Counted from the stretch's first letter, positions 1-24,214 are shown. The stretch: 24,214 nucleotides of DNA from a virus (IMGVR_UViG_2695420649_000003), one strand, 5' to 3'. Translations and numbers: made by a program. The notes: a model not told the origin generated them from the sequence alone.

Positions 1-38
1 TGGAGCGGACAATCCAAATGGCGAATTACCGTCTTATA

Positions 39-365
39 TCACTGGCGCTGACACTTCATCACCTCCGGACGTAAATCACCATCCTTTGGTGCATTCAGAA
101 ACGCGTTCAGTGTCCCCGGTGCATCAGTCGGTGCCACATCAATATCCCCGACACGGGTTGGCTGCCAGCCGTTACAGTGAAGCGCAACCTCGTAATACCC
201 CGGCTCAGCCTCAATCACATAAGCACCGTTATTGTCCGTCACGCAAGTGGCAACAACGTGTGCCACAACGGTCGGACTGGTTCTTCTGGCCCGCAGTTCA
301 ATCGCACAATTTACGACAGGTTTACCCGCCCCATCTTTCAGTACACCTGAAATCTTTACTGCCAT
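39..365 (-). CDS. stf: Side tail fibre protein (Stf) N-terminal domain; ORF stops after ~108 aa, so truncated or disrupted
   Basis: Translation from the internal Met (MAVKISGVLKDGAGKPV...) matches the conserved N-terminus of lambda-type Stf as I recall it. It lies immediately downstream of lom, as in lambda. TGA stop at 39..41; no Stf-like continuation in the other two frames of the remaining 38 nt. Confidence 0.6.
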   Translation of the reverse strand: MAVKISGVLKDGAGKPVVNCAIELRARRTSPTVVAHVVATCVTDNNGAYVIEAEPGYYEVALHCNGWQPTRVGDIDVAPTDAPGTLNAFLNAPKDGDLRPEVMKCQRQ

Positions 366-428
366 ATTCACCCCACAAAAAGCCCGCCTGAACCAGCGGG
401 CAGTCATAACACTGTGTTACCTGGCTAA

Positions 429-1028
429 TCAGAACTTATAACCGACACCCACGATGAAACCGTCAGTGCGCCAGTCACCACTGCCGGAACCTTCATAAGC
501 AAGGTCAATGGCCACGGATTCGGTCGGGTTAAACTGCACGCCAGCCCCCCACGCCAGAGACGTGTTGCTGTGGCGACCGCCATCACTTCCGGTCAGCACA
601 TCGTGCGTTTTCCCCTTGTTGTCAGTTACGCGGAGATAATCCCCGGAGAAGGTCGACACACGGCTGTAAGCCACGCCCGCCATCGCATACGCGCTGAACC
701 ATTCATTCACGCGCACAGACGGCCCCGCCATCACGCTGAACCAGCGGTTACGCACGGAATCCTCATGCCAGCGGGTATCGCTGTAATGCGTTTTTTGCTC
801 ATCTTCAGCGTTGGCATAACTGAATGACGTAATCAGCCCCAGCGTGTCCGTAAACTCATAACGGTATTTCACGTTAATGCCCTTCAGGTCATCGCTGCCT
901 GGCATATCAGTATGGGTCTGAAGATACCCGGCGCTCAGCGTGGACTGATGTTCAGACGCCCATGCAGGCGCACCGGATACGGCCAGGCAAATGGCTGCGG
1001 ACAAAATGGCTGCACAAACTTTACGCAT
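429..1028 (-). CDS. lom: Lom outer-membrane beta-barrel protein (Ail/Lom family), 199 aa, full length
   Basis: ORF-track protein begins with the signal peptide MRKVCAAILSAAICLAVSGAPAWA and ends in ...GFIVGVGYKF, a typical beta-barrel terminus. Recognisable lambda Lom homologue in the expected position after J. Confidence 0.9.
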   Translation of the reverse strand: MRKVCAAILSAAICLAVSGAPAWASEHQSTLSAGYLQTHTDMPGSDDLKGINVKYRYEFTDTLGLITSFSYANAEDEQKTHYSDTRWHEDSVRNRWFSVMAGPSVRVNEWFSAYAMAGVAYSRVSTFSGDYLRVTDNKGKTHDVLTGSDGGRHSNTSLAWGAGVQFNPTESVAIDLAYEGSGSGDWRTDGFIVGVGYKF

Positions 1029-1052
1029 AATTACCTCTCGCTTTTCTGCAAT

Positions 1053-1076
1053 AAAAAAGGCACCATTTCTGGTGCC
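1053..1076 (-). terminator. Rho-independent terminator between J-like copy and lom (hairpin GGCACC/GGTGCC then T-run on the minus strand)
   Basis: Plus strand reads aaaaaa-GGCACC-atttct-GGTGCC; on the minus-strand transcript this is a 6-bp stem hairpin followed by UUUUUU. Sits 20 nt downstream of the J-like stop and upstream of the lom start. Confidence 0.55.
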
Positions 1077-1095
1077 CGTATCTGGGTTATAAAAT

Positions 1096-2202
1096 TCAGC
1101 TAATCGTGATGCCTGCAGTGGCTTTCTTCATCACCACAACCAGCAAATCGCTGATACTTGCTGTGGGATACCAGCCATTTACCAGCCATGCCGATACAGA
1201 AAACTCCAGCGTCATGTGACCGTGACCGGCAGGCATATCAATAACACCCGTATATATCAGCGTATTATCCAGGGTCGTTCGGTTATAAATTTCAGCACCG
1301 TTTTTCTTCACTATCAGGCGGCATGACGAATAAATATTGTTATTCTTCCGCTCATGTTTAGCACCGCGAAACGCCACCGCGGGAATAACAATTTGCCGAT
1401 CAAACGGCTGATCGTCATAAACCCTGACGGTAATGGTCCCTGATGGCCACCTCTCCGGTGCCCGGGAGTCCCGTGGGAAAGGTTTGCCCACTGTTTTAAC
1501 GAGATCGCCTTCAATCTGGTTCGCGGACAATTTTCCCAGAACCCGACAGTTCTTATTAATCGTGACGTTGTTGAGCGTCCCGGAGTTCGCGTTCACGTTA
1601 CCGCTGATATCGGCATTTTTCGCCGTCAGCCGTCCGCCAGGTGTCAGGGAAAATGCCGGAGGATTACCGCCGCTGGTAATGGTCGGAGCCGTCAGGCATT
1701 TCAGGAACACGTCGTTCATGAATATCTGATCGCCCTGACCAACAAACATCGGCTTTGTGTTGCCATTCGCAGGATTAATCATCGCAATCCTGTCTGCCGC
1801 CAGCAGCACCTGACTCTGCATTCCTGCTGGCGTATTCTCAATACCGGCACCGATACCCGCAATATAAAGGCGTCCGTCCTTCATCTGTTGCAGCTTCACA
1901 GCCCACATGCTGTTCAGGTTATTATTTGTATCAACCTGAACTTTCTGTATCTGCTGGATTGCAGCACTCTGATTTTCCAGTTTTTTATTGACGGTTTGCG
2001 TGATTTCATTGCTGACATTCGTAATGGACGTCCTGATTTCAGTCAGGTCCGGCGCAAGCTGACCGTTATCAATCTGCGTCCACAACTCCTTGCCGAGATG
2101 CGTTTTATTGATCAACCCTTTATAAAAATTCAGATAACCTTCTGCATCATCGCTCGCCCGACCGATGGCCTCCACAAATGCCGATTTGCCAACGGTGTTC
2201 AC
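1096..2202 (-). CDS. J: C-terminal portion (368 aa) of a second J-type tail-tip host-specificity protein with a distinct C-terminal domain; partial copy
   Basis: Protein aligns with the last ~370 aa of the full J at 4110..7607 (shared [37 protein letters not shown]..) but diverges over the last ~150 aa. Upstream continuity is broken by the N-run at 2357..2407. Confidence 0.75.
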
Positions 2203-2252
2203 ACTGCGAACGTAAAAATAATAATCATGGCCCGGCCTGATATTGATACTGG

Positions 2253-2511
2253 CGGCTATCCAGTACAGCGCCGTGCCAAGATAGCGTGCTGTGGTTTCAA
2301 CCTGCCTGATATCCGCAATCCGCTTTTCCGAGAACCAGAACTCAAACTGTACCGTCNNNNNNNNNNNNNNNNNNNNNNNNNNNNNNNNNNNNNNNNNNNN
2401 NNNNNNNCGGCTATCCAGTACAGCGCCGTGCCAAGATAGCGGGCGCTGGTTTCAACCTGCCTGATATCCGCAATCCGCTTTTCCGAAAACCAGAACTCAA
2501 ACTGCACCGTC
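2253..2511. repeat. 51-N gap (2357..2407) flanked by two near-identical 104-bp direct copies (2253..2356 and 2408..2511)
   Basis: Both flanks read cggctatccagtacagcgccgtgccaagatagcg...aactcaaactg(t/c)accgtc and differ at only a few positions. The left copy is identical to 5283..5386 in the full J gene. Pattern is typical of two overlapping contig ends joined with Ns. Confidence 0.85.
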
Positions 2512-3590
2512 GGGTCATATACAGCCAGTTTCGGGACCGCCGTTATCTGAAAATACCCCGGTATCAGTTCAATAGTGACAGGCGCTGCCGGTGCCGCAAT
2601 CCGGAACGATACCGACGCCGGATCGCCCTGCTGCCCCCGGGCATTTACCGCCCGGACTGTCAGACTGTAATTCCCCAGCGCCAGCTGCCTGAAGCGGTAT
2701 GTGGTTTCCGTCGTCCTGGCTGTGCTGACCAGCCGCTCACTGCCGTCGTCCGCTGCCACGGTCAGGCGAAGCAGGAAGCTCACACCCTTCACCACCTTCG
2801 GCGTGTCCCATCGCGCCAGCACCTGATATTCCCCGCTGTCTGCGGTGACTTCGGCAGTCAGGTGCTGCACCGCTGGCGGCGTGACACCATTCACCGTGCC
2901 GCGCCGGTCACCGTCAAAGTGTGCCCCGTTATCCACGATGGCCTCTTTTTCCGGCACATGCTGCACGGCGGTGATGGCATACGTGCCGTCGTCGTTCTCA
3001 CGGATACTCACGCAGCGGAACAGACGCTGGCGCAGCGTCGGCAGCTTCAGCCCCCACACGCTGTATTCTGCAACGCCGTCAGGAACCCGGCTCACTTTCA
3101 CCTTCACGCCGTCGGTGACGGACTGGACCTCCACGCTGACCGGATTGCCACTTCCGTCAACCAGGCTTATCAGCGTGGTACCGGAGGACGGCAGCGTGAT
3201 TTCACGGTCGAGCGTCAGCGTCCGGGTCTGGCTGTTCACCGCCAGTACGCGACCACCGGTGCTGATACCGGCATAATCATCATCGCAGATTTCAATGACA
3301 TCACCCGGTACATGGCGAAGCCCTTCTGCGCCCACGCTGAAGTCCACGGTCTGCGTTTCCAGCAGTTCCGTTTTAATCAGCCACAGCCCGGCTCGGTGTG
3401 CCTGCCCCCGGCTGGTACAGCCAAAGGCATCCATCTTCGTGACATTACGACCGTAACGGGCAATGGCCTGCGTATCCTCCACAAGCTCTGTCGCCGTCTC
3501 CCAGCCGTTATCTGGGTCAATCCAGTTCACCTCAACGGCATTATGGCGGTCCTTCAGGGCGCTGAAGCTGTAGCGGAACGGCGCGCCATC
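2256..3590 (-). pseudogene. J: Central portion of a J-like tail-tip gene (equivalent to J residues ~378-800), lacking its 5' end and interrupted by the N gap
   Basis: ORF 2256..3530 ([23 protein letters not shown]...) parallels the full J protein ([32 protein letters not shown]...). DNA homology to 6420..6471 continues to 3590, then stops abruptly at the 'n' at 3591. Frame is lost at the N-run. Confidence 0.7.
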
Positions 3591-3591
3591 N

Positions 3592-4039
3592 CATCACTTC
3601 CGGTCAGCACATCGTGCGTTTTCCCCTTATTGTCAGTTACGCGGATATAATCCCCGGAAAAAGTCGACACACGGCTGTAAGCCACACCCGCCATCGCATA
3701 CGCGCTGAACCATTCATTCACGCGCACAGACGGCCCCGCCATCACGCTGAACCAGCGGTTACGCACGGAATCTTCATGCCAGCGGGTATCGCTGTAACGG
3801 GTCAGCTGGCGATTCTTGTCTCCTGCATAGCTGAATGACGTCACCAGCCCCAGCGTATCCGTAAACTCATAACGGTATTTCACGTTAATCCCGTTCAGAT
3901 CATCACTGCCGGGAACGTTGGTCCGGGCATGAAGATACCCCGCGCTCAGCGTGGACTGATGTTCAGACGCCCATGCAGGCGCACCGGATACGGCCAGGCA
4001 AATGGCTGCGGACAAAATGGCTGCACAAACTTTACGCAT
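3592..4039 (-). pseudogene. lom: lom second allele, N-terminal ~149 codons only; 3' end replaced by J-like sequence at an 'n' junction
   Basis: Protein MRKVCAAILSAAICLAVSGAPAWASEHQSTLSAGYLHARTNVPGSDDLNGINVKYRYEF... is Lom-like up to ...THDVLTGSD, then the sequence switches to J-like DNA at position 3591. Differs from the lom at 429..1028 in a patch at residues ~36-80. Confidence 0.7.
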
Positions 4040-4063
4040 AATTACCTCTCGCTTTTCTGCAAT

Positions 4064-4087
4064 AAAAAAGGCGTCATTCCTGACGCC
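4064..4087 (-). terminator. Rho-independent terminator downstream of J (hairpin GGCGTCA/TGACGCC then T-run on the minus strand)
   Basis: Plus strand reads aaaaaa-GGCGTCA-ttcc-TGACGCC. Same architecture and position as the hairpin at 1053..1076 but with a different stem sequence. Confidence 0.55.
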
Positions 4088-4109
4088 ATTTATTGGGGTT
4101 ATAAATATT

Positions 4110-7100
4110 TCAACGAATACTGATGCCGGAAGCCGCTTTTTTGGTCACAATCACCGTACAGTCGGTGATATTGCCTGCCCCCTGATTGCCTTTCTGGAAA
4201 ATCTTAAACTCCAGAGTGACGCTACCACCACCACTAGGCATATCAATAACTGCACTGTAACTACCGGGAATGGCACCTTTAGTTTCTCTGGATGCGATTA
4301 ATACGCCGTTTTTGCGAACTTCAAAACCATAACCCGTGTATCGCGTGCCTCCTGGGTTATTTCCGCTCCCCGGATCGTCATACGCTATACCGTTAAAAAT
4401 AATGGGCGGAATAATAATCTGGCGGTCAAAGTTATGATCATCGCTTATGGTGACTGTAACCGTCCCGTTTGGTGTTTCCGTGTTACCCCACGTACCAGCC
4501 TGTTTCGGAAATGATTTGGATACAGCTTTAACGAAGTCACCTCTGACCTGAGTCGCCTCCAGCATGCCCTTAATCGTACAGTTTTCATTTACCGTGACAT
4601 TGTTGAGCGTCCCGGCGTTCGCATTCACACTGCCACTGATATCCGCATTTTTAGCGGTCAGCTTTCCGTCCGGAGTCAGGGAAAATGCCGATGGATTTCC
4701 ACCGCTGGTAATGGTGGGGGCCGTCAGGCGTTTCAGGAACACGTCGTTCATGAATATCTGATCGCCCTGACCAACAAACATCGGTTTTGTGTTGCCATTC
4801 GCAGGATTAACCATCGCAATCCTGTCCGCCGCCAGCAGCACCTGACTCTGCATGCCGTCAGGGGTGTTCTCAATACCGGCACCAATACCCGCGATATAAA
4901 GGCGTCCGTCCTGCATCTGCTGCAGCTTCACAGCCCACATGCTGTTCAGGTTATTATTTGTATCAACCTGAACCTTCTGTATCTGCTGAATTGCCGCACT
5001 CTGGTCTTCCAGTTTCTTATTGACGGTCTGCGTGATTTCATTGCTGACATCCGTAATGGACGTCCTGATTTCAGCCAGGTCAGGCGCAAGCTGACCGTTA
5101 TCAATCTGCGTCCACAGCTCCTGAGCCAGATGGGTTTTCCCTATCTCGCCTTTGAAAAAATCCAGATAACCGGATGCATCATCACTCGGCTGACCAACAG
5201 CCTCCACGAATGCCGATTTGCCAACGGTGTTCACACTGCGGATATAAAAGTAATAATCATGGCCCGGTTTGATATTGATACTGGCGGCTATCCAGTACAG
5301 CGCCGTGCCAAGATAGCGTGCTGTGGTTTCAACCTGCCTGATATCCGCAATCCGCTTTTCCGAGAACCAGAACTCAAACTGTACCGTCGGATCATAAACC
5401 GCAAGATGCGGCGTGGCGGTTATCTGAAAATAGCCCGGCGTCAGCTCAATCCGCGACAGCGCTGCCGGTGCGGCAATCCGGAACGATACCGACGCCGGAT
5501 CGCCCTGCTGCCCCCACGCATTTACTGCCCGGACTGTCAGCCTGTAGTTCCCCAGCGCCAGTTGTGTGAAGCGGTAAGTGGTTTCCGTCGTCCGGGCCGT
5601 GCTGACCAGCCGCTCACTGCCGTCATCCGCTGTTACGGTCAGACGGAGCAGGAAGCTCACGCCCTTCACCACCTTCGGCGTGTCCCAGCGCGCCAGCACC
5701 TGATATTCCCCGCTGTCTGCGGTGACTTCGGCAGTCAGGTGCTGCACCGCTGGCGGCGTGACACCATTCACCGTGCCGCTCTGGTCGCCGTCAAAGTGCG
5801 CCCCGTTATCCACGATGGCTTCTTTTTCCGGCACATGCTGCACGGCGGTGATGGCATACGTGCCGTCGTCGTTCTCACGGATACTCACGCAGCGGAACAA
5901 TCGCTGGTGCAGCGTCGGCAGCTTCAGCCCCCACACGCTGTATTCAGCAACACCGTCAGGAACACGGCTCACTTTTACCTTCACGCCGTCGGTGACGGAC
6001 TGGACCTCCACGCTGACCGGATTCCCCTGCCCGTCAACCAGGCTTATCAGCGTGGTGCCGGAGGATGGCAGCGTGATTTCACGGTCGAGCGTCAGCGTCC
6101 GGGTCTGGCTGTTCACCGCCAGCACGCGCCCGCCGGTGCGGATACCGGCATAGTCATCATCGCAGATTTCAATGACATCGCCCGGTACATGACGAAGCCC
6201 TTCAGCACCCACGCTGAAATCCACGGTCTGCGTCTCCAGCAGTTCCGTTTTAATCAGCCACAGCCCGGCGCGGTGTGCCTGCCCCCGGCTGGTACAGCCA
6301 AAGGCATCCATCTTCGTGACGTTACGACCGTAACGGACAATGGCCTGCGTATCCTCCACAAGCTCTGTCGCCGTCTCCCAGCCGTTATCCGGGTCAATCC
6401 AGTTCACCTCAACGGCATTATGGCGGTCTTTCAGGGCGCTGAAACTGTAGCGGAACGGCGCGCCATCATCCGGCATCACCACATTACTGCGGTTATAGGC
6501 CCACACCTTATCCGACTGTCGGTCCTGCACGAACGTCAGCGTCTGCCCGTTCCATACCGGCATACAGCGCATCGCCGAGCAGAAATCACTGAGCACATCC
6601 CACGCCTTGCGCTGTGTGGTCAGCCAGGCATTACAGGTGATGCGCGGCTCCGTGCTGCCAAAGCCGTCCGGCACCGACTGGTCACAGTACTGGCCGATGA
6701 CATACAGCGCCCATTTATCCACATCTGCCGCACCAAGACGTTTCCCCATGCCATAGCGCGGATGGGTCAGCATATCCCACAGACACCAGGCCATGTTGTT
6801 GCTGTATGCCGGTTTTAACGTTCCGTCCCAGATACCGCTGTATTGCCGCGTCTGCGGGTTATAGTTCGACGGCACCTGCAGAATGCGCCCGCGAAGATGA
6901 TAATTACGGCTCACCTGCTGGCTGCCGAACTGCTCCGAATCCACCTGTACGCCGACCAGTGCCGTGTTCGGGTAGCACTGTTTCACATCGATGATTTCGG
7001 TGTACGACGACCAGAGCGTTTTGTTCTGCAGCTGGTCTGTGGTGCTGTCCGGCGTCATTCTGCGCATCCGGATATTAAACGGGCGCGGCGGCAGGTTATC

Positions 7101-7607
7101 CACCACCACCGAGGCCAGATACTGCGAGGTGGTTTTGCCCTTAATGGTGATGTCTTTTTCCGTCACCCAGCCACCGTTACGCTGTATCTGAACCAGCAGG
7201 CGAACTTCAGACGGATTCCTGTCTCCCTTTGAGGTGGTTTCCACCAGTGCCTGTACACCGAAGGTAAAACGCAGTCGGTCAATGTTTGCCGACGTGATGG
7301 TCCGGGTGATCGGCGTGTCATATTTCACTTCCGTACCCAGCACCGTCTCGGAGCCGGAGGATTCAAATCCCTCCGGCGGTGACTGCTCCTGCTCACCTGC
7401 CCGGAACACCACCGTGACGCCGGAGATGTTGGTATTCCCCTCACTGTCCAGCACCGGCGTACTGTTCAGCAGCACGCTTTTTAATCCATCCACCGGACCT
7501 TCAACCGGCCCTTCGCTGATGGCATCGATCACACTCAGCAGCTGCGTGGACTTCAGGTTGTCCTTCGCTTCGCGCGGGGTATGCCCCTTACTGCTGCCTT
7601 TACCCAT
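4110..7607 (-). CDS. J: Tail tip / host-specificity protein J (central tail fibre), 1165 aa
   Basis: N-terminus [34 protein letters not shown]... matches lambda gpJ as I recall it. Lies after I in lambda order and contains fibronectin-type-III-like repeats. The last ~155 aa differ from the partial copy at 1096..2202. Confidence 0.95.
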
Positions 7608-7667
7608 TCGTCATGCTCCATAAACGATAAAACCGCCCGGAGGCGATTTCACATAAAACATTTTGCA

Positions 7668-8339
7668 TCAGCGACCAATCACCACAACCTGACCACCGTC
7701 CCCTTCGTCTGCCGTGCTGATCTCCTGAGATACCACACGTGACCCCACGCGCATTTCACCATACAGAACAGGCATAACATTGCCCTGGGCAACCATGTTA
7801 TCCAGTGAGGAGAAATAGGTGTTCTGCTTACCGTTATCCGTTGTCTGTGTGCGGGGAGTTCTGGCTTTCGGTGCCAGCATCTGAGCCACACCGCCGAGCA
7901 CCATACTGGCACCGAGAGAAAACAGAATGCCGGTCATACCACCGGCACCAATGGCAGCCCCCCATGCTGCAAGGGTGGCTCCGGCGGTAAAGAATGATCC
8001 GGCAATGGCGGCTGCTCCCAGGACAATCTGGAATACACCACCTGACTTGGCCCCGGCGACTCTGGGAACAATATGAATCACAGCGCCGTCAGGCAGAGCC
8101 TCATGTAACTGTGCCGTTAATCCGGACGTGCTAACATCCTGCCCGGCAATACGCACCTGATACCAGCCGTCGCTCAGCTTCTGACGAAACGCAGGGAGCT
8201 GTGTGGCCATCGCCCGGATGGCTTCGGCACCCGTTTTCACACGAAGGTCGATGCGGCGGCCAAATCGTTGCAAATCCCCGTAAAGGCAGATGCGTGCCAT
8301 GCCCGGTGACGCCAGAGGGAGTGTGTGCGTCGCTGCCAT
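7668..8339 (-). CDS. I: Tail assembly protein I, 223 aa
   Basis: Length and position match lambda gpI. Overlaps the 3' end of K by ~103 nt in another frame, as in lambda. Hydrophobic Gly/Ala-rich C-terminal half. Confidence 0.9.
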   Translation of the reverse strand: MAATHTLPLASPGMARICLYGDLQRFGRRIDLRVKTGAEAIRAMATQLPAFRQKLSDGWYQVRIAGQDVSTSGLTAQLHEALPDGAVIHIVPRVAGAKSGGVFQIVLGAAAIAGSFFTAGATLAAWGAAIGAGGMTGILFSLGASMVLGGVAQMLAPKARTPRTQTTDNGKQNTYFSSLDNMVAQGNVMPVLYGEMRVGSRVVSQEISTADEGDGGQVVVIGR

Positions 8340-8980
8340 TTGTCGGTATACCTCTCTCGTTTGCTCAGTTGTTCAGGAATATGGTGCAGCAGCTCGCCGT
8401 CACCACAGTAAATGGCGGCATGATTCGGCACCGATGAACCAAAACAGCACAGCAGCACATCGCCCGGCTGCGCCGCTGACAACGGCACCTGATACAGCCC
8501 TGTGGCCTCCAGATTATCCAGATAGAGATTCTGACCGTGACGCCACCAGTCATCCTCACGATGAAAATCCGGCATCTCAATCCCCGCCAGATGGTAAGCA
8601 TCCCGGAACAGCGTGTAACAGTCCGTCACCCCGTGCTCAAAGCGCCGCCCGGTAAGATGTGGCACACAGCGGAACTTGTGAATCGCCCCCCGGCAGACCA
8701 GCCACCACGGCAAATCACTCTGCACCTGCAGCCGCCGGTCGGCCTCACTCAGCCAGGGCAGACCACCGGGGTGGCTGTGGACCAGTGCCACAATCTCACC
8801 CTGCATCTCTGCCTGCAGCCAGTCTTCCGGCGACATACGGAAATACGCCTCCGGCTCACCGGAGATATTCACGCAGGGGAAATATCTTTCCCCCTCCGGC
8901 GTTCTTACCACGAAGCCGCACGACTCCGCTGGAGCACATCGCCGGGCGTGCGCCAGAATCGCTGATTCTGTCTCTGTCAT
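8237..8980 (-). CDS. K: Tail tip assembly protein K, MPN/JAMM plus NlpC/P60 two-domain protein (247-aa long form)
   Basis: ORF starts 6 nt after the L stop with MTETESAILAHARRC.... Contains a JAMM motif (HSHPGGLPWLSEAD) and Cys/His NlpC/P60-like motifs (DCYTLF, NHAAIY). An alternative internal start at Met49 (8836) would give the 199-aa product. Confidence 0.85.
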   Translation of the reverse strand: MTETESAILAHARRCAPAESCGFVVRTPEGERYFPCVNISGEPEAYFRMSPEDWLQAEMQGEIVALVHSHPGGLPWLSEADRRLQVQSDLPWWLVCRGAIHKFRCVPHLTGRRFEHGVTDCYTLFRDAYHLAGIEMPDFHREDDWWRHGQNLYLDNLEATGLYQVPLSAAQPGDVLLCCFGSSVPNHAAIYCGDGELLHHIPEQLSKRERYTDKWQRRTHSLWRHRAWHASAFTGICNDLAAASTFV

Positions 8981-8985
8981 GGGAT

Positions 8986-9684
8986 TTACTGCGAAAGTTT
9001 GTTAATGGAAAGGAAGCCGCCAAAGTTGCCGACGTTATTGCGAAACTTACAGCCACTCAGGCATTTGCTGCATTTATCCTTCGTGATGTCGGACGTTGGC
9101 TGGTCATATTCATCCGCGACCGCCGGACCGTGATAACCGCACTCATCGCCGCGATAGGTCCAGGTGCAGGTGTTGGCCAGCATGATACGTCCCGGAAAAA
9201 CAGCGCCATCTGTTTCCGTCGGCGTGGACAGTACAAAAGAGGCACTCACCGCGCTCAGTTCGCTGCACTGCTCAATGCGCCAGCGGCTGATCACCTCCTG
9301 CTCCGGATCGGCGTCACTGTTTCCGTTGACGAAGTTCACCGCATCCAGAAAACGGGCGTAAACCTTACGCCGGACCACCGTTCCGCCGACCAGACTCTGT
9401 AGATCTTCCGCCATCCCGGTGACCATACCGTACAGGTTAGAAACCATCAGCGTGGGGCGCGTACTGGTGCCTTTGCCATTCAGTTCAAAACCACTCCCCT
9501 GAATGGGATACGGCTGATACTGTCGCCCCTGCCAGGTGACCGGCTCACCTTTTTCGTTCTGCTCATTACAGAAAAAATAACGTTCTCCACCGACCTCTGT
9601 CAGATCGATTTCCCAGAGCACCACGCTGGCCGACTGCTCCGCACGGGTGCATTCATTCAGTGTTTCCTGCCGGATATCCTGCAT
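8986..9684 (-). CDS. L: Minor tail protein L, 232 aa
   Basis: MQDIRQETLNECTRAEQSASVVLWEIDLTEVGGERYFFCNEQNEKGEPVTWQGRQYQPYPIQGSGF... matches lambda gpL as I recall it, between M and K in lambda order. Confidence 0.93.
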   Translation of the reverse strand: MQDIRQETLNECTRAEQSASVVLWEIDLTEVGGERYFFCNEQNEKGEPVTWQGRQYQPYPIQGSGFELNGKGTSTRPTLMVSNLYGMVTGMAEDLQSLVGGTVVRRKVYARFLDAVNFVNGNSDADPEQEVISRWRIEQCSELSAVSASFVLSTPTETDGAVFPGRIMLANTCTWTYRGDECGYHGPAVADEYDQPTSDITKDKCSKCLSGCKFRNNVGNFGGFLSINKLSQ

Positions 9685-10013
9685 CAGTTCACCACCTGTT
9701 CAAACTCTGCGCTGAACTCAACACGCAGCATACTGACCCGCGACGACCATTTTGCGCAGGTCACCTTTATCTGCCGCCACTCATAAGGCGGCGTCCACAG
9801 AAAGGCTTTCCAGCCCCCGTGCTCTTCCAGAAACGACTCCAGTACCATGGCCTCCTCACGGGGGACAGAAAGCGTCACGCTGTACGTTTTCAGGTTGGCA
9901 TTCAGCCCGGCAGGCGCTCGCTGGGAATAGCCATCACCAAAGCGCACCTTTCTTACAGAAGGGGCCGAAGCCACATCCATACCGGGTTTCACTTTCCAGC
10001 GGAAGGTTTTCAT
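9684..10013 (-). CDS. M: Minor tail protein M, 109 aa
   Basis: MKTFRWKVKPGMDVAS...SAEFEQVVN matches lambda gpM as I recall it. Start overlaps the H stop (ATGA), end overlaps the L start by 1 nt, as in lambda. Confidence 0.93.
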   Translation of the reverse strand: MKTFRWKVKPGMDVASAPSVRKVRFGDGYSQRAPAGLNANLKTYSVTLSVPREEAMVLESFLEEHGGWKAFLWTPPYEWRQIKVTCAKWSSRVSMLRVEFSAEFEQVVN

Positions 10014-12571
10014 CGTCCACCTCCGGAGAACAGGCCACCATCACGCATCTGTGTCTGAATTTCATCACGGGCACCCTTGCGGGCCATGTCATACACGGCC
10101 TTCATCATCTGTGGACCTGGCAGACCATTCGTACCGTCGTTCTGAATCACCACGTGATTGTTCTGATTAAAATTAATGCCTTCAGCCCGCCGCATCTGCG
10201 CCGGACTTCCGGCACCGCCCACATAACCACCTTCCGCATAGCCGCGCATCAGCCGGTAGAGATTCCCCACGCCAATCCGGCTGGTTGCCTCCTTCGTGAA
10301 GACAAATTCACCACGGTGAACAATCCCCGCTGGCTCATATTTGCCGCCGGTTCCCGTAAATCCCCCGGTTGCAAAATGGAATTTCACCGCAGCGGCCTGA
10401 ATGGCTGTACCACCTGACGCGGATGCGCCGCCACCAACAGCCCCGCCAATGGCGCTGCCGATACTCCCGACAATCCCCACCATTGCCTGCTTAAGCAGAA
10501 TTTCTGTCATCATGGACAGCACGGAGCGGGTGAAGCTGCGCCAGTTCTGTTCACTGCCGGTCAGCATCGCCGCCATATTCTGTGCAATACCATCAAAGGT
10601 CTGCGTGGCTGCACTTTTAACCTGTGACATACTGTCCGTGGCGCTCTCTTCCCACTCACTCCAGCCGGACTTCAGGCCTGCCATCCAGCTCCCGCGAAGC
10701 TGGTCTTCAGCCGCCCAGGTCTTTTTCTGCTCTGACATGACGTTATTCAGCGCCAGAGGATTATCGCCATACTGTTCCTTCAGGCGCTGTTCCGTGGCTT
10801 CCCGCGCTGCCTGCCGGTCAGTCAGCCCCCGGTTTTTCGCATCAATGGCTGCCCGTTTTGCCCGTTGCTGCTGTGCGAATTTATCCGCCTGCTGCGCCAG
10901 CGCATTCAGGTGCTCCTGATACGTAACCTTGTCACCAAGTGCAGCCAGCTGGCGTTTGTACTCCAGCGTCTCGTCTTTATGCGCCAGCAGGGATTTCTCC
11001 TGTGCGGACAGCTGGCGACGTTGTGCCGCCTCCTCCAGTACCGCGAACTGACTTTCTGCCTTCCACAAATCCCGGCGCTGCTGGCTGATTTTCTCATTCG
11101 CTCCGGCATGCTTCTCCAGCGTCCGGAGTTCTGCCTGAAGCGTCAGCAGGGCCGCATGAGCACTGTCTTCCTGACGATCGCCCGCATACACCTTCACGCC
11201 GGACTGTTTCGGCTTTTTCAGCGTCGCTTCATAATCCTTTTTCGCCGCCGCCATCAGCGTGTTGTAATCTGCCTGCAGGATTTTTCCGTCTTTCAGTGCC
11301 TTGTTCAGTTCTTCCTGACGGGCGGTATATTTCTCCAGCGGCGTCTGCAGCCGTTCGTAAGCCTTCTGCGCCTCTTCGGTATATTTCAGCCGTGACGCTT
11401 CGGTATCGCTCTGCTGCTGCGCATTTTTGTCCTGTTGACGCTGTTGATCTACCCTCTTTTGGGCTGCATCCCGCTCCAGGCGTTTTTTTTCACGATCATC
11501 CCAGTAACGCGCCCGTGCTTCATCGTTAACGAAATAATCATCCTTGCGCAGATTCCAGATGTCGTCTGCTTTCTTAAACGCAGCCTCTGCCTTAATCAGC
11601 ATCTCCTGCGCGGTATCAGGACGACCAATATCCAGCACCGCATCCCACATGGATTTGAATGCACGTGCAGTCCTGTCTGCCCAGGTCTCCAGCGTGCCCA
11701 TGTTCTCTTTCAGGCGGCGGGTCTGGTCATCAAACCCTTTCGTTGCGGCCTCGTTCGCCGCCTGCAATGCCCCGGCTTCATCGCCGGAACGCTGCAACTG
11801 AGCAACATACGCAATCTGCTCCGCCGTCACGTTATGGAACTGGCGTGCCATCGCCGTCAGCCCCGACGTCGGGTCTGTGGTCAGCTTCCCGAAGGCTTCA
11901 GCGACCTTGTCCACCTCCACGCCGGATGCATAGGAGAAACGCGCCACACTCTGGCTGATGGACGCAATCTGAGCCTCACCGCTTACCCCCGCCTTAACCA
12001 GTGCGCTGAGTGACTCGCTGGTCTGGTTAAACGTCAGCCCTGCCGCCTGCCCGGCTCTGGACAGGACCAGCATACGATCTGCCGTCAGTCCCGCCTGATT
12101 ACCGGAAAGGACCAGCGTTTTGTTGAAATCGGACAGGGTTGAGTTGCCCTGATACCAGGCATACGCCAGCGCACCGGTCGCCACCGCCAGCGAGGTGGCC
12201 CCCACCATCGGCAGGGTGATCGCGCCGGCAAGCCCCCTGAACATGGGGATCATCCCGCCGAAGGAGTCCTTAACCTGACCACCCTGTTGCAGCAGGATCA
12301 GCCAGGGATTCTGCCCCCCTGCAAGCTGCGTGGCCACGTCGGTGAACTGTGCAGGCAGCATACGCATGGCGGCTTTATACTGCCCGACGGAAATCCCCGC
12401 TTTCTGTGCAGCCAGCGCCTGTCGGCTCAGCGACTGTTCAACGACTGCCGCTGTTTTTTTCGCATCACTTTCCGTACCGGAAAAATGACGCCTGACTCTG
12501 GCCATCTGCTCGTCAAATCTGGCCGCATCCAGACTCAAATCAACGACCAGATCGCCTACCGGTTCAGCCAT
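10010..12571 (-). CDS. H: Tail tape measure protein H, 853 aa
   Basis: Same length as lambda gpH. Long coiled-coil-rich central region (Q/R/E/A/K-rich), Gly-rich hydrophobic segment near the C-terminus. Position between T and M. Confidence 0.95.
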   Translation of the reverse strand: MAEPVGDLVVDLSLDAARFDEQMARVRRHFSGTESDAKKTAAVVEQSLSRQALAAQKAGISVGQYKAAMRMLPAQFTDVATQLAGGQNPWLILLQQGGQVKDSFGGMIPMFRGLAGAITLPMVGATSLAVATGALAYAWYQGNSTLSDFNKTLVLSGNQAGLTADRMLVLSRAGQAAGLTFNQTSESLSALVKAGVSGEAQIASISQSVARFSYASGVEVDKVAEAFGKLTTDPTSGLTAMARQFHNVTAEQIAYVAQLQRSGDEAGALQAANEAATKGFDDQTRRLKENMGTLETWADRTARAFKSMWDAVLDIGRPDTAQEMLIKAEAAFKKADDIWNLRKDDYFVNDEARARYWDDREKKRLERDAAQKRVDQQRQQDKNAQQQSDTEASRLKYTEEAQKAYERLQTPLEKYTARQEELNKALKDGKILQADYNTLMAAAKKDYEATLKKPKQSGVKVYAGDRQEDSAHAALLTLQAELRTLEKHAGANEKISQQRRDLWKAESQFAVLEEAAQRRQLSAQEKSLLAHKDETLEYKRQLAALGDKVTYQEHLNALAQQADKFAQQQRAKRAAIDAKNRGLTDRQAAREATEQRLKEQYGDNPLALNNVMSEQKKTWAAEDQLRGSWMAGLKSGWSEWEESATDSMSQVKSAATQTFDGIAQNMAAMLTGSEQNWRSFTRSVLSMMTEILLKQAMVGIVGSIGSAIGGAVGGGASASGGTAIQAAAVKFHFATGGFTGTGGKYEPAGIVHRGEFVFTKEATSRIGVGNLYRLMRGYAEGGYVGGAGSPAQMRRAEGINFNQNNHVVIQNDGTNGLPGPQMMKAVYDMARKGARDEIQTQMRDGGLFSGGGR

Positions 12572-22939: not shown

Positions 22940-23075
22940 AAAACAGAGAAAGGAAACGACAGAGGCCAAAAAGCCCGTTTTCAGCACCTGTCGTTTCCTT
23001 TCTTTTCAGGGGGTGTTTTAAATAAAAACATTAGGTTACGGCGAAGAAGAACGGAAACGCCTTAAACCGGAAAAT
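22940..23075 (-). promoter_or_regulatory. cosB: Nu1-binding R-elements (R1 ~22944..22964, R2 ~22985..23002, R3 ~23044..23062) and AT-rich IHF site I1 (~23013..23038)
   Basis: Three copies of the GGAAACG(A/C)C / GTCGTTTCC core in the lambda arrangement (two in one orientation, one inverted), with an AT-rich block ttttaaataaaaacattaggtta between R3 and R2. Lies between cosN and the nu1 start. Confidence 0.7.
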
Positions 23076-23099
23076 TGTCATAAATAGCGAAAACCCGCG

Positions 23100-23111
23100 C
23101 GCCTTCCGCCC
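23100..23111 (-). promoter_or_regulatory. cosN-equivalent 12-mer (terminase nicking site); minus-strand sequence GGGCGGAAGGCG
   Basis: Flanks match my recollection of the lambda left end (…CGCGGGTTTTCGCTATTTATG…) and right end (…GGTTACG). In the lambda register the 12-mer reads GGGCGG-AAGGCG against lambda GGGCGG-CGACCT. Confidence 0.6.
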
Positions 23112-23150
23112 CGTAACCTGTCGGATCGCCGGAAAGGACCCGCAAAATGA
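23112..23150 (-). promoter_or_regulatory. cosQ-side region (right-end sequence adjacent to cosN)
   Basis: Sequence cgtaacctgtcggatcgccggaaaggacc is adjacent to cosN on the side opposite cosB, corresponding to the lambda right-end terminus (...GGTCCTTTCCGGTGATCCGACAGGTTACG). Exact cosQ limits not determined. Confidence 0.45.
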
Positions 23151-23310
23151 TAATAATTATCATCTACATGTCACAACGTGCATCTACGCCATCAAACCAC
23201 GTCAAATAATCAATTATGACGCAGGTATCGTATTAATTGATCTGCATCAACTTAACGTAAAAACAACTTCAGACAATACAAATCAGCGACACTGAATACA
23301 GGGCAACCTC

Positions 23311-23544
23311 ATGTCAACGAAGAACAGAACCCGCAGAACAACAACCCGCAACATCCGCTTTCCTAACCAAATGATTGAACAAATTAACATCGCTCTTGTT
23401 CAAAAAGGGTCCGGGAATTTCTCAGCCTGGGTCATTGAAGCCTGCCGCCGGAGACTGTGCTCAGAAAAAAGAGTTTCGCCTGAAGCAAACAAAGAAAAGA
23501 GTGACATTACTGAATTGCTCAGAAAACAGGTTAGACCAGATTGA
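23311..23544 (+). CDS. Small basic protein of unknown function (DUF3950 / YnfO-YlcI-like)
   Basis: 77-aa ORF MSTKNRTRRTTTRNIRFPNQMIEQINIALVQKGSGNFSAWVIEACRRRL.... Opposite strand to the late operon, in the AT-rich segment beyond cos. Family assignment is from memory of E. coli prophage small ORFs and not verified. Confidence 0.55.
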   Translation: MSTKNRTRRTTTRNIRFPNQMIEQINIALVQKGSGNFSAWVIEACRRRLCSEKRVSPEANKEKSDITELLRKQVRPD

Positions 23545-23601
23545 AGCAATTTAGATAATCGTGCAGACTACGCCCCCTCATATCACATGGAAGGTACTAC
23601 A

Positions 23602-24012
23602 ATGGCTCAGGTTGCCATTTTTAAACAAATATTCGATAAAGTGCGAAATAATTTAAACTATCACTGGTTTTATTCTGAACTAAAACGTCACAATGTCTCA
23701 CATTACATTTACTATTTAGCCACAGAGAATATTCATCTTGTTCTTGAAAACGATAATACGGTTTTAATAAAAGGACAGGGTAAGGTTGTAAATGTAAGAT
23801 TTTCAAAAAATAAATGCCTTATAGAAGCCACCTTAAAAGGATTCAAATCAGGAGAGTTATCATTTTACGAATACAGGAAAAATCTTGCTACAGCAGGGGT
23901 TTTCAGATGGATTACAAATATCCACGAAAACAAAAGGTATTACTATACCTTTGATAATTCATTACTCTTTACTGAGAACATACAGAACACTACACAAATA
24001 TTTCCGCACTAA
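23602..24012 (+). CDS. DUF1398-family protein (YbcV/YdfO-like), unknown function, ~136 aa
   Basis: ORF 23587..24012; preferred start is the ATG at 23602 with GGAAGG 9 nt upstream. Protein [45 protein letters not shown]... is Asn/Lys/Tyr-rich, and the DNA is much more AT-rich than the structural genes. Family call is from recall. Confidence 0.6.
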
Positions 24013-24214
24013 ATCATAACGTCCGGTTTCTTCCGTGCCAGAACCGGACTCGCTGGCATGATGAAATATGTGTACCCGGTAACCCCGGTGTGCATCGTTT
24101 TTGATTATTCCCGCACACTCGCGCAGAAGGAGTTCCCCGTCGGGCTACGGTCTCTGTTAATACGGGAATACGGCGACGATTGGATTTGCCCCTATATTTC
24201 CAGACATCTGTTAT

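Follow-up and report, generated by a model that had tools for sequence, protein, structure and literature searches.

The 24,214-nt stretch of viral DNA that we analysed (IMGVR_UViG_2695420649_000003, hereafter the window) contains two J-type tail-tip sequences with different C-terminal receptor-binding domains, and very probably it is a scaffold that joins pieces of two prophages, whose tips both belong to known classes and both probably use OmpC. An earlier note on this DNA had placed the two tips together in one window and taken them for two host-range specificities; their adjacency turns out to depend on two joins marked by Ns rather than on unbroken sequence. The source would be an E. coli-like strain, perhaps enteroinvasive E. 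coli or Shigella, that has several lambda-like prophages and whose genome was assembled as a draft. One prophage (3592-24214) would supply an entire late operon, with J1 and lom1 at its end, and two short contigs (2408-3590 and 1-2356) from the J2-lom2-stf2 region of a second prophage, presumably located at a separate chromosomal site, would have been appended behind it at N-marked joins, where assembly could not proceed across the repeated J, lom and stf sequences.

In the ORF map of the window, every relevant gene is on the minus strand. From 3592 to 24180 the window aligns in one piece, at 97.3% identity, with the ET82 prophage, and its ORF order is collinear with the annotation of that prophage, which lists small and large terminase, portal, S49 protease, decoration and major capsid proteins, tail genes, tape measure, M, L, K, I, J, Ail/Lom, side tail fibre and tail fibre assembly. 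In the window's lambda-like prophage, the tip attachment or central tail fibre gene is J1 (4110..7607), an intact ORF of 1165 aa in which all six domains (FNIII-A_GpJ, Phage-tail_3, Ig_J, Ig_J_second, Phage_Tail_Tip and Ig_GpJ_C) score above the Pfam cut-offs; this set is the complete Pfam architecture of lambda gpJ. Its position is also that of a lambda-type J, as the last gene of the tail operon (H, M, L, K, I, J), with lom and stf behind it. The lom gene behind it, lom1 (3592..4039), consists of the 5' 448 nt of an Ail/Lom gene cut at the scaffold join, where the frame is lost at the N and the flank corresponds to lom nt 448 of 599. Beyond J1 in the 3' direction the order is thus truncated lom1, J-like DNA (3590-2408), 51 Ns, J-like DNA (2356-1096), lom2, truncated stf2 and the end of an IS21-family element. 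Of the genes of the second prophage, lom2 (429..1028) is an intact Ail/Lom outer-membrane protein gene, matching Pfam Ail_Lom over 1-199 of 199 (E = 4e-129) and sharing about 90% DNA identity with lom1. The truncated stf2 (39..407) retains the N-terminal domain of a side tail fibre gene interrupted by the insertion sequence; Pfam phage_tail_N is matched only over 1-104 of 134, and similarity to the stf of E. coli O121 201805972, which is intact, ends at window position 54. Positions 1..53 are the end of the insertion sequence itself, which is of the IS21 family: the interval 7275-7520 of the related L014, which spans window 1-55, is a 100% match to IS21-family elements annotated istA. Two further related contigs, L015 and L023, begin at this position too.

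The second J copy had been described as a partial gene at 1096..2202, a description that does not hold, since J-homologous DNA spans 1096 to 3590 and comprises two contig pieces rather than one gene fragment. The 368-aa ORF at 1096..2202 contains Phage_Tail_Tip and Ig_GpJ_C, the last two of the six domains of J1. The J2 middle fragment (2408..3590; fragment A, about aa 381-774), a separate contig, has a 394-aa open frame from DGAPFRYSF and is about 94% identical to J1 and 99.83% identical to L015 and L023, both free of Ns, in which it forms part of an intact 1159-aa J. The J2 3' fragment (1096..2356; fragment B, aa 741-1159) is 99.7% identical to L014, L015 and L023 and 99.0% identical to E. 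coli O121 201805972 at the only J-lom-stf locus of that genome. The upstream part of J2 is absent from the window, and its position in an operon is seen in relatives only.

That the two copies are near-identical and then part company at their C-termini, as the earlier note reported, is readily confirmed, and both of the C-terminal sequences it quoted are present. J1 and J2 are roughly 90-98% identical up to ...GTLNNVT and 38-40% identical over the last 155-160 aa or so; the distal domains, RBD1 (4110..4592, aa 1006-1165 of J1) and RBD2 (1096..1560, 154 aa of J2), are identical at 62/163 positions (38%). Intact J2 relatives, of 1159 aa, are about 95% identical to J1 across the first 1000 aa, and in 50-aa protein windows an intact J2 relative shows 88-100% identity to J1 up to aa ~1000, except for aa 801-850 at 78%, and 36-50% beyond. 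At the DNA level, identity between J1 and the second copy is mostly 25-30 of 30 nt, is 20-24 of 30 around J1 aa 804-833, and drops to about 10-21 of 30 from J1 nt ~3011-3040 (window ~4597-4570 and ~1565-1535), so that the boundaries claimed earlier, 4580 and ~1546, were right to within about 15 nt.

The divergent segment is, as had been proposed, the receptor-binding module of J. Over its full length, the Pfam model PF12421 (Ig_GpJ_C) fits both tips, with 89.2 bits at model positions 1-134 of 135 for RBD1 and 127.1 bits at 2-135 for RBD2. Their alignments with the solved domains of lambda J (8XCJ, 8IYK) and A8 gpJ (9WCA) also run from end to end, with E = 1e-44 to 1e-80. In lambda J, the Ig-like domain that follows a beta-prism stem puts four bottom loops into the LamB trimer (PMC11101478). 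Each J of the window would similarly be an ordinary lambda-type central tail fibre, in which a conserved body and a beta-prism stem lead to an exchangeable Ig-like domain of about 155-160 aa at the C-terminus; the bottom loops of this domain would bind an outer-membrane porin. RBD1 and RBD2 differ by indels at lambda residues ~1009-1014, 1051/52, 1078/79 and 1106-1111; these four sites are the four indel hot spots of PMC6646904, and three of them coincide with loops of phi330 J predicted to contact OmpC (TSTY, ENFNSNNQQS and ANNWTP; PMC12502783). Just before the domain lies a 22-residue stem motif that has only three variable positions and is almost unchanged in all the proteins compared. The motif sits near lambda residue 964, the graft point for functional J chimeras (PMC11338833), and inside the specificity region, lambda residues 960-1132, which recombines independently of the J body (PMC6646904; Maddamsetti et al. 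2018).

RBD1 belongs to the phage-434 class, being 95% identical to the J of phage 434 over 158 aa. Its identity to other characterised tips is far lower: 43% to phi330 J, 42% to A8 gpJ, 41% to phage 21 J, 37% to the LamB-binding J of lambda, and, approximately, given the OCR-damaged 1A2 sequence, 94/188 scorable positions with gpJ 1A2 (distal-domain identities here and below come from pairwise local alignments, and the A8 values from a four-way alignment). Close relatives abound: RBD1 is 99.4% identical to the tips of phages Evi, 2B8, PhiR26_1 and PhiR29_1 and 97-98% identical to those of cdtI, ev207, mEp460_ev081, Ayreon, phi458, 2851 and many long-tailed Stx phages. Literature searches by phage names and general terms returned no stated receptor for the RBD1-bearing phages, and the link between RBD1 and OmpC was obtained by comparison with the phage 434 genome sequence. 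The receptor of phage 434 is OmpC, formerly protein Ib, according to a passage of PMC7414163 that cites Hantke 1978, and its use of OmpC is also stated in PMC12502783. On this basis RBD1 probably binds OmpC.

RBD2 falls into the class of gpJ 1A2, a natural prophage tip which, when grafted onto lambda J at residue 964, brings DNA into a lamB-deleted host via EDL933-type OmpC (PMC11338833); the 1A2 chimera works poorly on the OmpC of MG1655 (Brödel et al. 2024, Nature; PMC11338833). The published 1A2 sequence is recoded DNA in an OCR-damaged supplementary PDF, which we compared by frameshift-tolerant protein-to-DNA alignment, and identity to RBD2 is at least 91% (169/186 scorable positions), a value that is approximate for that reason; the corresponding DNA identity of 70% is uninformative. 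RBD2 is 64% identical to phage 21 J, 61% to phi330 J, 60% to A8 gpJ, and 40% to both lambda J and phage 434 J, and among phages it is 92-94% identical to vB_EcoS-640R1, 2G7b, VT1-Sakai and PPompW. It, too, probably binds OmpC.

We assign OmpC to both tips because their closest characterised relatives, 434 J at 95% and 1A2 at no less than 91%, both use it; the assignments go by homology, and a sequence difference of 5-9% can change J specificity. The tips are thus probably two known binding-domain classes, from two prophages, that both target OmpC, and what distinguishes them is more likely the range of OmpC alleles or strains than the receptor protein. Aligning both with characterised J proteins, as the earlier note had suggested, matched them to different domains, 434 in one case and 1A2 in the other; the outcome that would have spoken against a difference in specificity, a close match of both tips to one characterised domain, did not occur. 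Of its claim of two host-range specificities, the existence of two different sequence classes stands, whereas two receptor proteins find no support in nearest relatives that both use OmpC. We nevertheless weighed the reading in which the tips recognise two different receptor proteins, for example OmpC and another porin, and think it unlikely. The distal domains, at 38-40% identity, are as far apart as lambda, a LamB user, is from either of them, the indels sit in receptor-contact loops, and small changes in J can add a receptor, a few substitutions being enough to let lambda J use OmpF (PMC6646904). But the nearest characterised relatives of both tips are OmpC users (PMC11338833), and so is the A8/phi330 class (PMC12502783, PMC11338833), which is only about 40-60% identical to the tips; divergent classes therefore commonly share OmpC.

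Nor is the co-occurrence of the two classes unusual. DNA matching RBD1 is found in 2113 of 5426 complete E. coli genomes (39%) and DNA matching RBD2 in 3378 of them (62%), and a complete E. coli genome has a median of three to four J-bearing places, so both classes in one strain are unremarkable. Modular exchange of the distal domain of J is already on record, as are both tip classes, and all of this occurs very commonly in E. coli prophages. What the analysis yields as a by-product is that sequence alone puts the active J1 in the phage-434 (OmpC) class and J2 in the 1A2 (OmpC) class.

We turn now to the arrangement. The only non-ACGT tracts in the window are the N at 3591 and the 51 Ns at 2357-2407, and both fall exactly at discontinuities. 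The single N at 3591 is almost certainly the scaffold join of the main contig, which ends in lom1, to a contig internal to J: by the mapping of its flanks, lom1 is cut mid-gene at nt 448 and abuts J nt 1141, at about J codon 381. Of 5426 complete E. coli genomes, 4895 match a 321-nt query across this position, and every match ends at the N; no genome covers 80% of the query, and the junction of truncated lom to truncated J is spanned in 0/5426. An exact search for the junction, N included, in genome_contigs and viral_contigs likewise gave no match. The 89-nt end of lom1 has no exact match in genome_contigs and occurs identically in 15 IMG/VR contigs, in 15/15 of which it goes on as lom and in none as J. 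What complete genomes show for either half of the block is an ordinary J-lom-stf module, present singly.

The 51-N run (2357..2407) is a false gap. The contig ends that flank it, at J nt 2220 and nt 2323, overlap by 104 nt, so that the same 104 nt of J are repeated on its two sides with 5 mismatches. We observe directly in L015 and L023 that both window J2 pieces map to one unbroken 1159-aa J with a 104-nt overlap, and both relevant pieces of L014 are also continuous across the site of the run. The first ~119 nt of fragment B are identical to J1, unlike the J2 relatives, and this points to a putative mis-extension of the contig end into the wrong repeat copy. We considered whether fragment B might instead be a third J with a J1-like body, and rejected this, as L015, L023 and both L014 pieces carry the fragment-A version there, continuous with RBD2; over the 104-nt overlap all four are identical to the fragment-A version. 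Related drafts behave in the same way. In 5 related draft-derived viral contigs there are 11 single-N sites, all internal to J, lom or stf and each at a different place; at 8/8 sites with both flanks mapped the flanks are non-adjacent, and at the other 3 one flank was mapped. Single-N joins thus recur in the J-lom-stf repeat module of such drafts. Taken together, the coincidence of the N joins with discontinuities, the 104-nt overlap of flanks, the continuity of J2 in relatives and the absence of the junction from the genomes make it almost certain that the adjacency of the two tips is an artefact.

Could the block of J1, truncated lom1, truncated J2, lom2 and stf2 be real all the same, with prophage recombination or unequal exchange having left the promoterless 3' two-thirds of a second J downstream of the active one? 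In such an arrangement the second J could be a silent cassette, swapped in by homologous recombination in the conserved J body. All the pieces of the window do share one orientation and follow gene order, and E. coli S42 truly carries a comparable structure in continuous sequence: a full J, a lom cut at nt 372, a J starting from about nt 916, a full lom and stf, the copies being 97.97% identical. S42 shows that rearrangements of this kind can arise. We searched for its junction as a sign of a widespread tandem structure and set that idea aside, since the junction was found in S42 alone. Moreover, the S42 junction lies elsewhere and its two copies have the same tip type, whereas in the window the decisive junction is an N rather than sequence, the second join of the same block is demonstrably false, the junction is absent from the complete genomes and the collection contigs, and in related drafts single-N joins occur at many further places within J, lom and stf. 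Neither an unbroken junction nor recurrence in independent assemblies, the marks of a real tandem J-lom duplication, was found for the window, and we regard a real tandem as highly unlikely. One form of it, in which the join at 3591 is real and the promoterless 3' two-thirds of a 1A2-type J behind an active 434-type J serve as a prophage-borne spare-tip cassette, strikes us as very improbable indeed; were it true, the tips could be exchanged by recombination in the J body, which is ~94% identical, and the range of OmpC alleles switched. It is barely credible that masking or ambiguous base calls account for the N tracts and that the sequence is truly contiguous: one collection does have a few stretches masked as N runs, and a single N can be an ambiguity code, but masking offers no explanation for the 104-nt J repeat on both sides of the 51-N run or for the lone N standing just where lom nt 448 gives way to J nt 1141, and relatives run through the corresponding J2 region without duplication. 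Programmed tail-fibre switching, whether by invertible segments such as those of Mu Gin and P1 Cin or by diversity-generating retroelements, was rejected as the copies are same-strand direct repeats with nothing but lom between them; among ORFs of at least 40 aa in 1-4200 there was no invertase or reverse transcriptase gene, the identifiable ones being the truncated stf, lom2, the J2 pieces and the truncated lom1.

A scaffold of two prophages, the reading we prefer, carries a caution: N-marked joins in the J-lom-stf region of drafts with several prophages can fake tandem or partial tail-fibre genes, and apparent dual-specificity loci need to be checked against gap positions before they are interpreted.

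Among known systems, E. coli S42 shares with the window the succession of a full J, a truncated lom, a 5'-truncated J, a full lom and stf, and differs from it in a continuous junction, other break points and a 434-type tip in both copies, where the window has Ns and two tips. The modular specificity region of J (PMC6646904) accounts for the tips themselves: similarity breaks off at about lambda residue 977 and indels occur at four positions, both in keeping with that module, of which the window presents two alleles, with nothing new added. With the lambda gpJ domain on LamB (PDB 8XCJ, 8XCK, 8IYK; PMC11101478) both tips share membership of the PF12421 family, end-to-end alignment and the stem motif, but distal identity to lambda is 37-40%, four indel sites separate them, and lambda binds LamB rather than OmpC. 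A8 gpJ (PDB 9WCA, 9WCB) and phi330 J (PV189401) are OmpC users of the same family, closer to RBD2 (60-61%) than to RBD1 (42-43%), and form a sequence class distinct from both window tips. RBD2 matches gpJ 1A2 (PMC11338833) through the whole 20-residue C-terminal end, and it differs from that tip, as read from OCR-damaged recoded DNA, in one loop (HERKNNNIY in RBD2, HEKEHTDIY in 1A2) and a few other positions. Phage 434 (GenBank OL657226, J being CPT_434_21) is the counterpart of RBD1, with 95% identity and, behind its J, likewise an Ail/Lom gene and then a gene for a side tail fibre; about 8 substitutions separate the distal domains, and the J body and the rest of the window's prophage belong to a different lambda-like lineage.

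Only two tracts of the window contain anything other than A, C, G and T: a run of 51 Ns at 2357-2407 and a single N at 3591. Gene continuity in the J-lom region breaks at both, and the sequences on either side of the longer run share a 104-nt overlap. The contig bearing RBD2, the tip domain of the second J, begins with 119 nt (2238-2356) that are identical to J1, the intact tail-tip gene, whereas four related contigs carry a version of this stretch with 5 differences. It looks like a contig end that ran on into the wrong copy of a repeat. We found 11 further single-N sites across five related IMG/VR contigs from isolate drafts (L014, L017, L032, L035 and L036), all internal to J, lom or stf and no two at the same place, and at 8 of these both flanks could be mapped, to non-adjacent positions. 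This pattern suggests that a scaffolding problem recurs in the J-lom-stf module within one family of draft assemblies.

A tandem J-lom'-'J-lom-stf structure is apparently real in E. coli S42, a complete genome (NZ_CP010236.1), where positions 3125-10298 of locus L040 hold, in order, a full J, a lom cut at nt 372, a J from nt ~916, a full lom and stf. The S42 copies share 97.97% identity across 3005 nt and both J copies carry a 434-type tip; the junction was found in S42 alone among 5426 genomes.

Base composition in the window is uneven. In each J copy, the 3' part together with the adjoining lom has a G+C of ~0.49 (~1000-2000 and ~4000-5000), as against ~0.62 in the J body (~2500-3500 and ~5500-6500), and this difference is consistent with the J 3' part and lom being a module that is exchanged separately. 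Upstream of the terminase genes, at 23000-24214, G+C falls to ~0.38; two plus-strand ORFs, at 23311-23544 and 23587-24012, have YlcI/YnfO-family and DUF1398 genes as their ET82 counterparts.

Position 1 of the window already falls within the terminal part of an IS21-family element (istA side, 1-53; also at 7275-7520 of L014), and two related contigs, L015 and L023, begin at the same base. The element cuts the side tail fibre gene stf2 after the N-terminal domain of that gene. Beyond the point where the truncated lom1 of the window ends, the 15 lom1-bearing contigs (L014 and L026-L039) show two forms: full-length lom in 5, and in the other 10 a shorter form with an internal deletion followed by the lom 3' end. 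Among complete genomes, those most closely related in the J2-lom2-stf2 segment have an ipaH effector gene just past the tail fibre genes (2395-4146 of L002, E. coli O121 201805972) and large plasmids of ~270-297 kb, which hints that the source lineage is enteroinvasive E. coli or Shigella-like. J1 is intact in the window; the matching J genes of the closest complete genomes, ET82 (L001, 6519-10014) and O121 201805972 (L002, 7043-10522), are annotated as pseudogenes, one frameshifted and the other with an internal stop.
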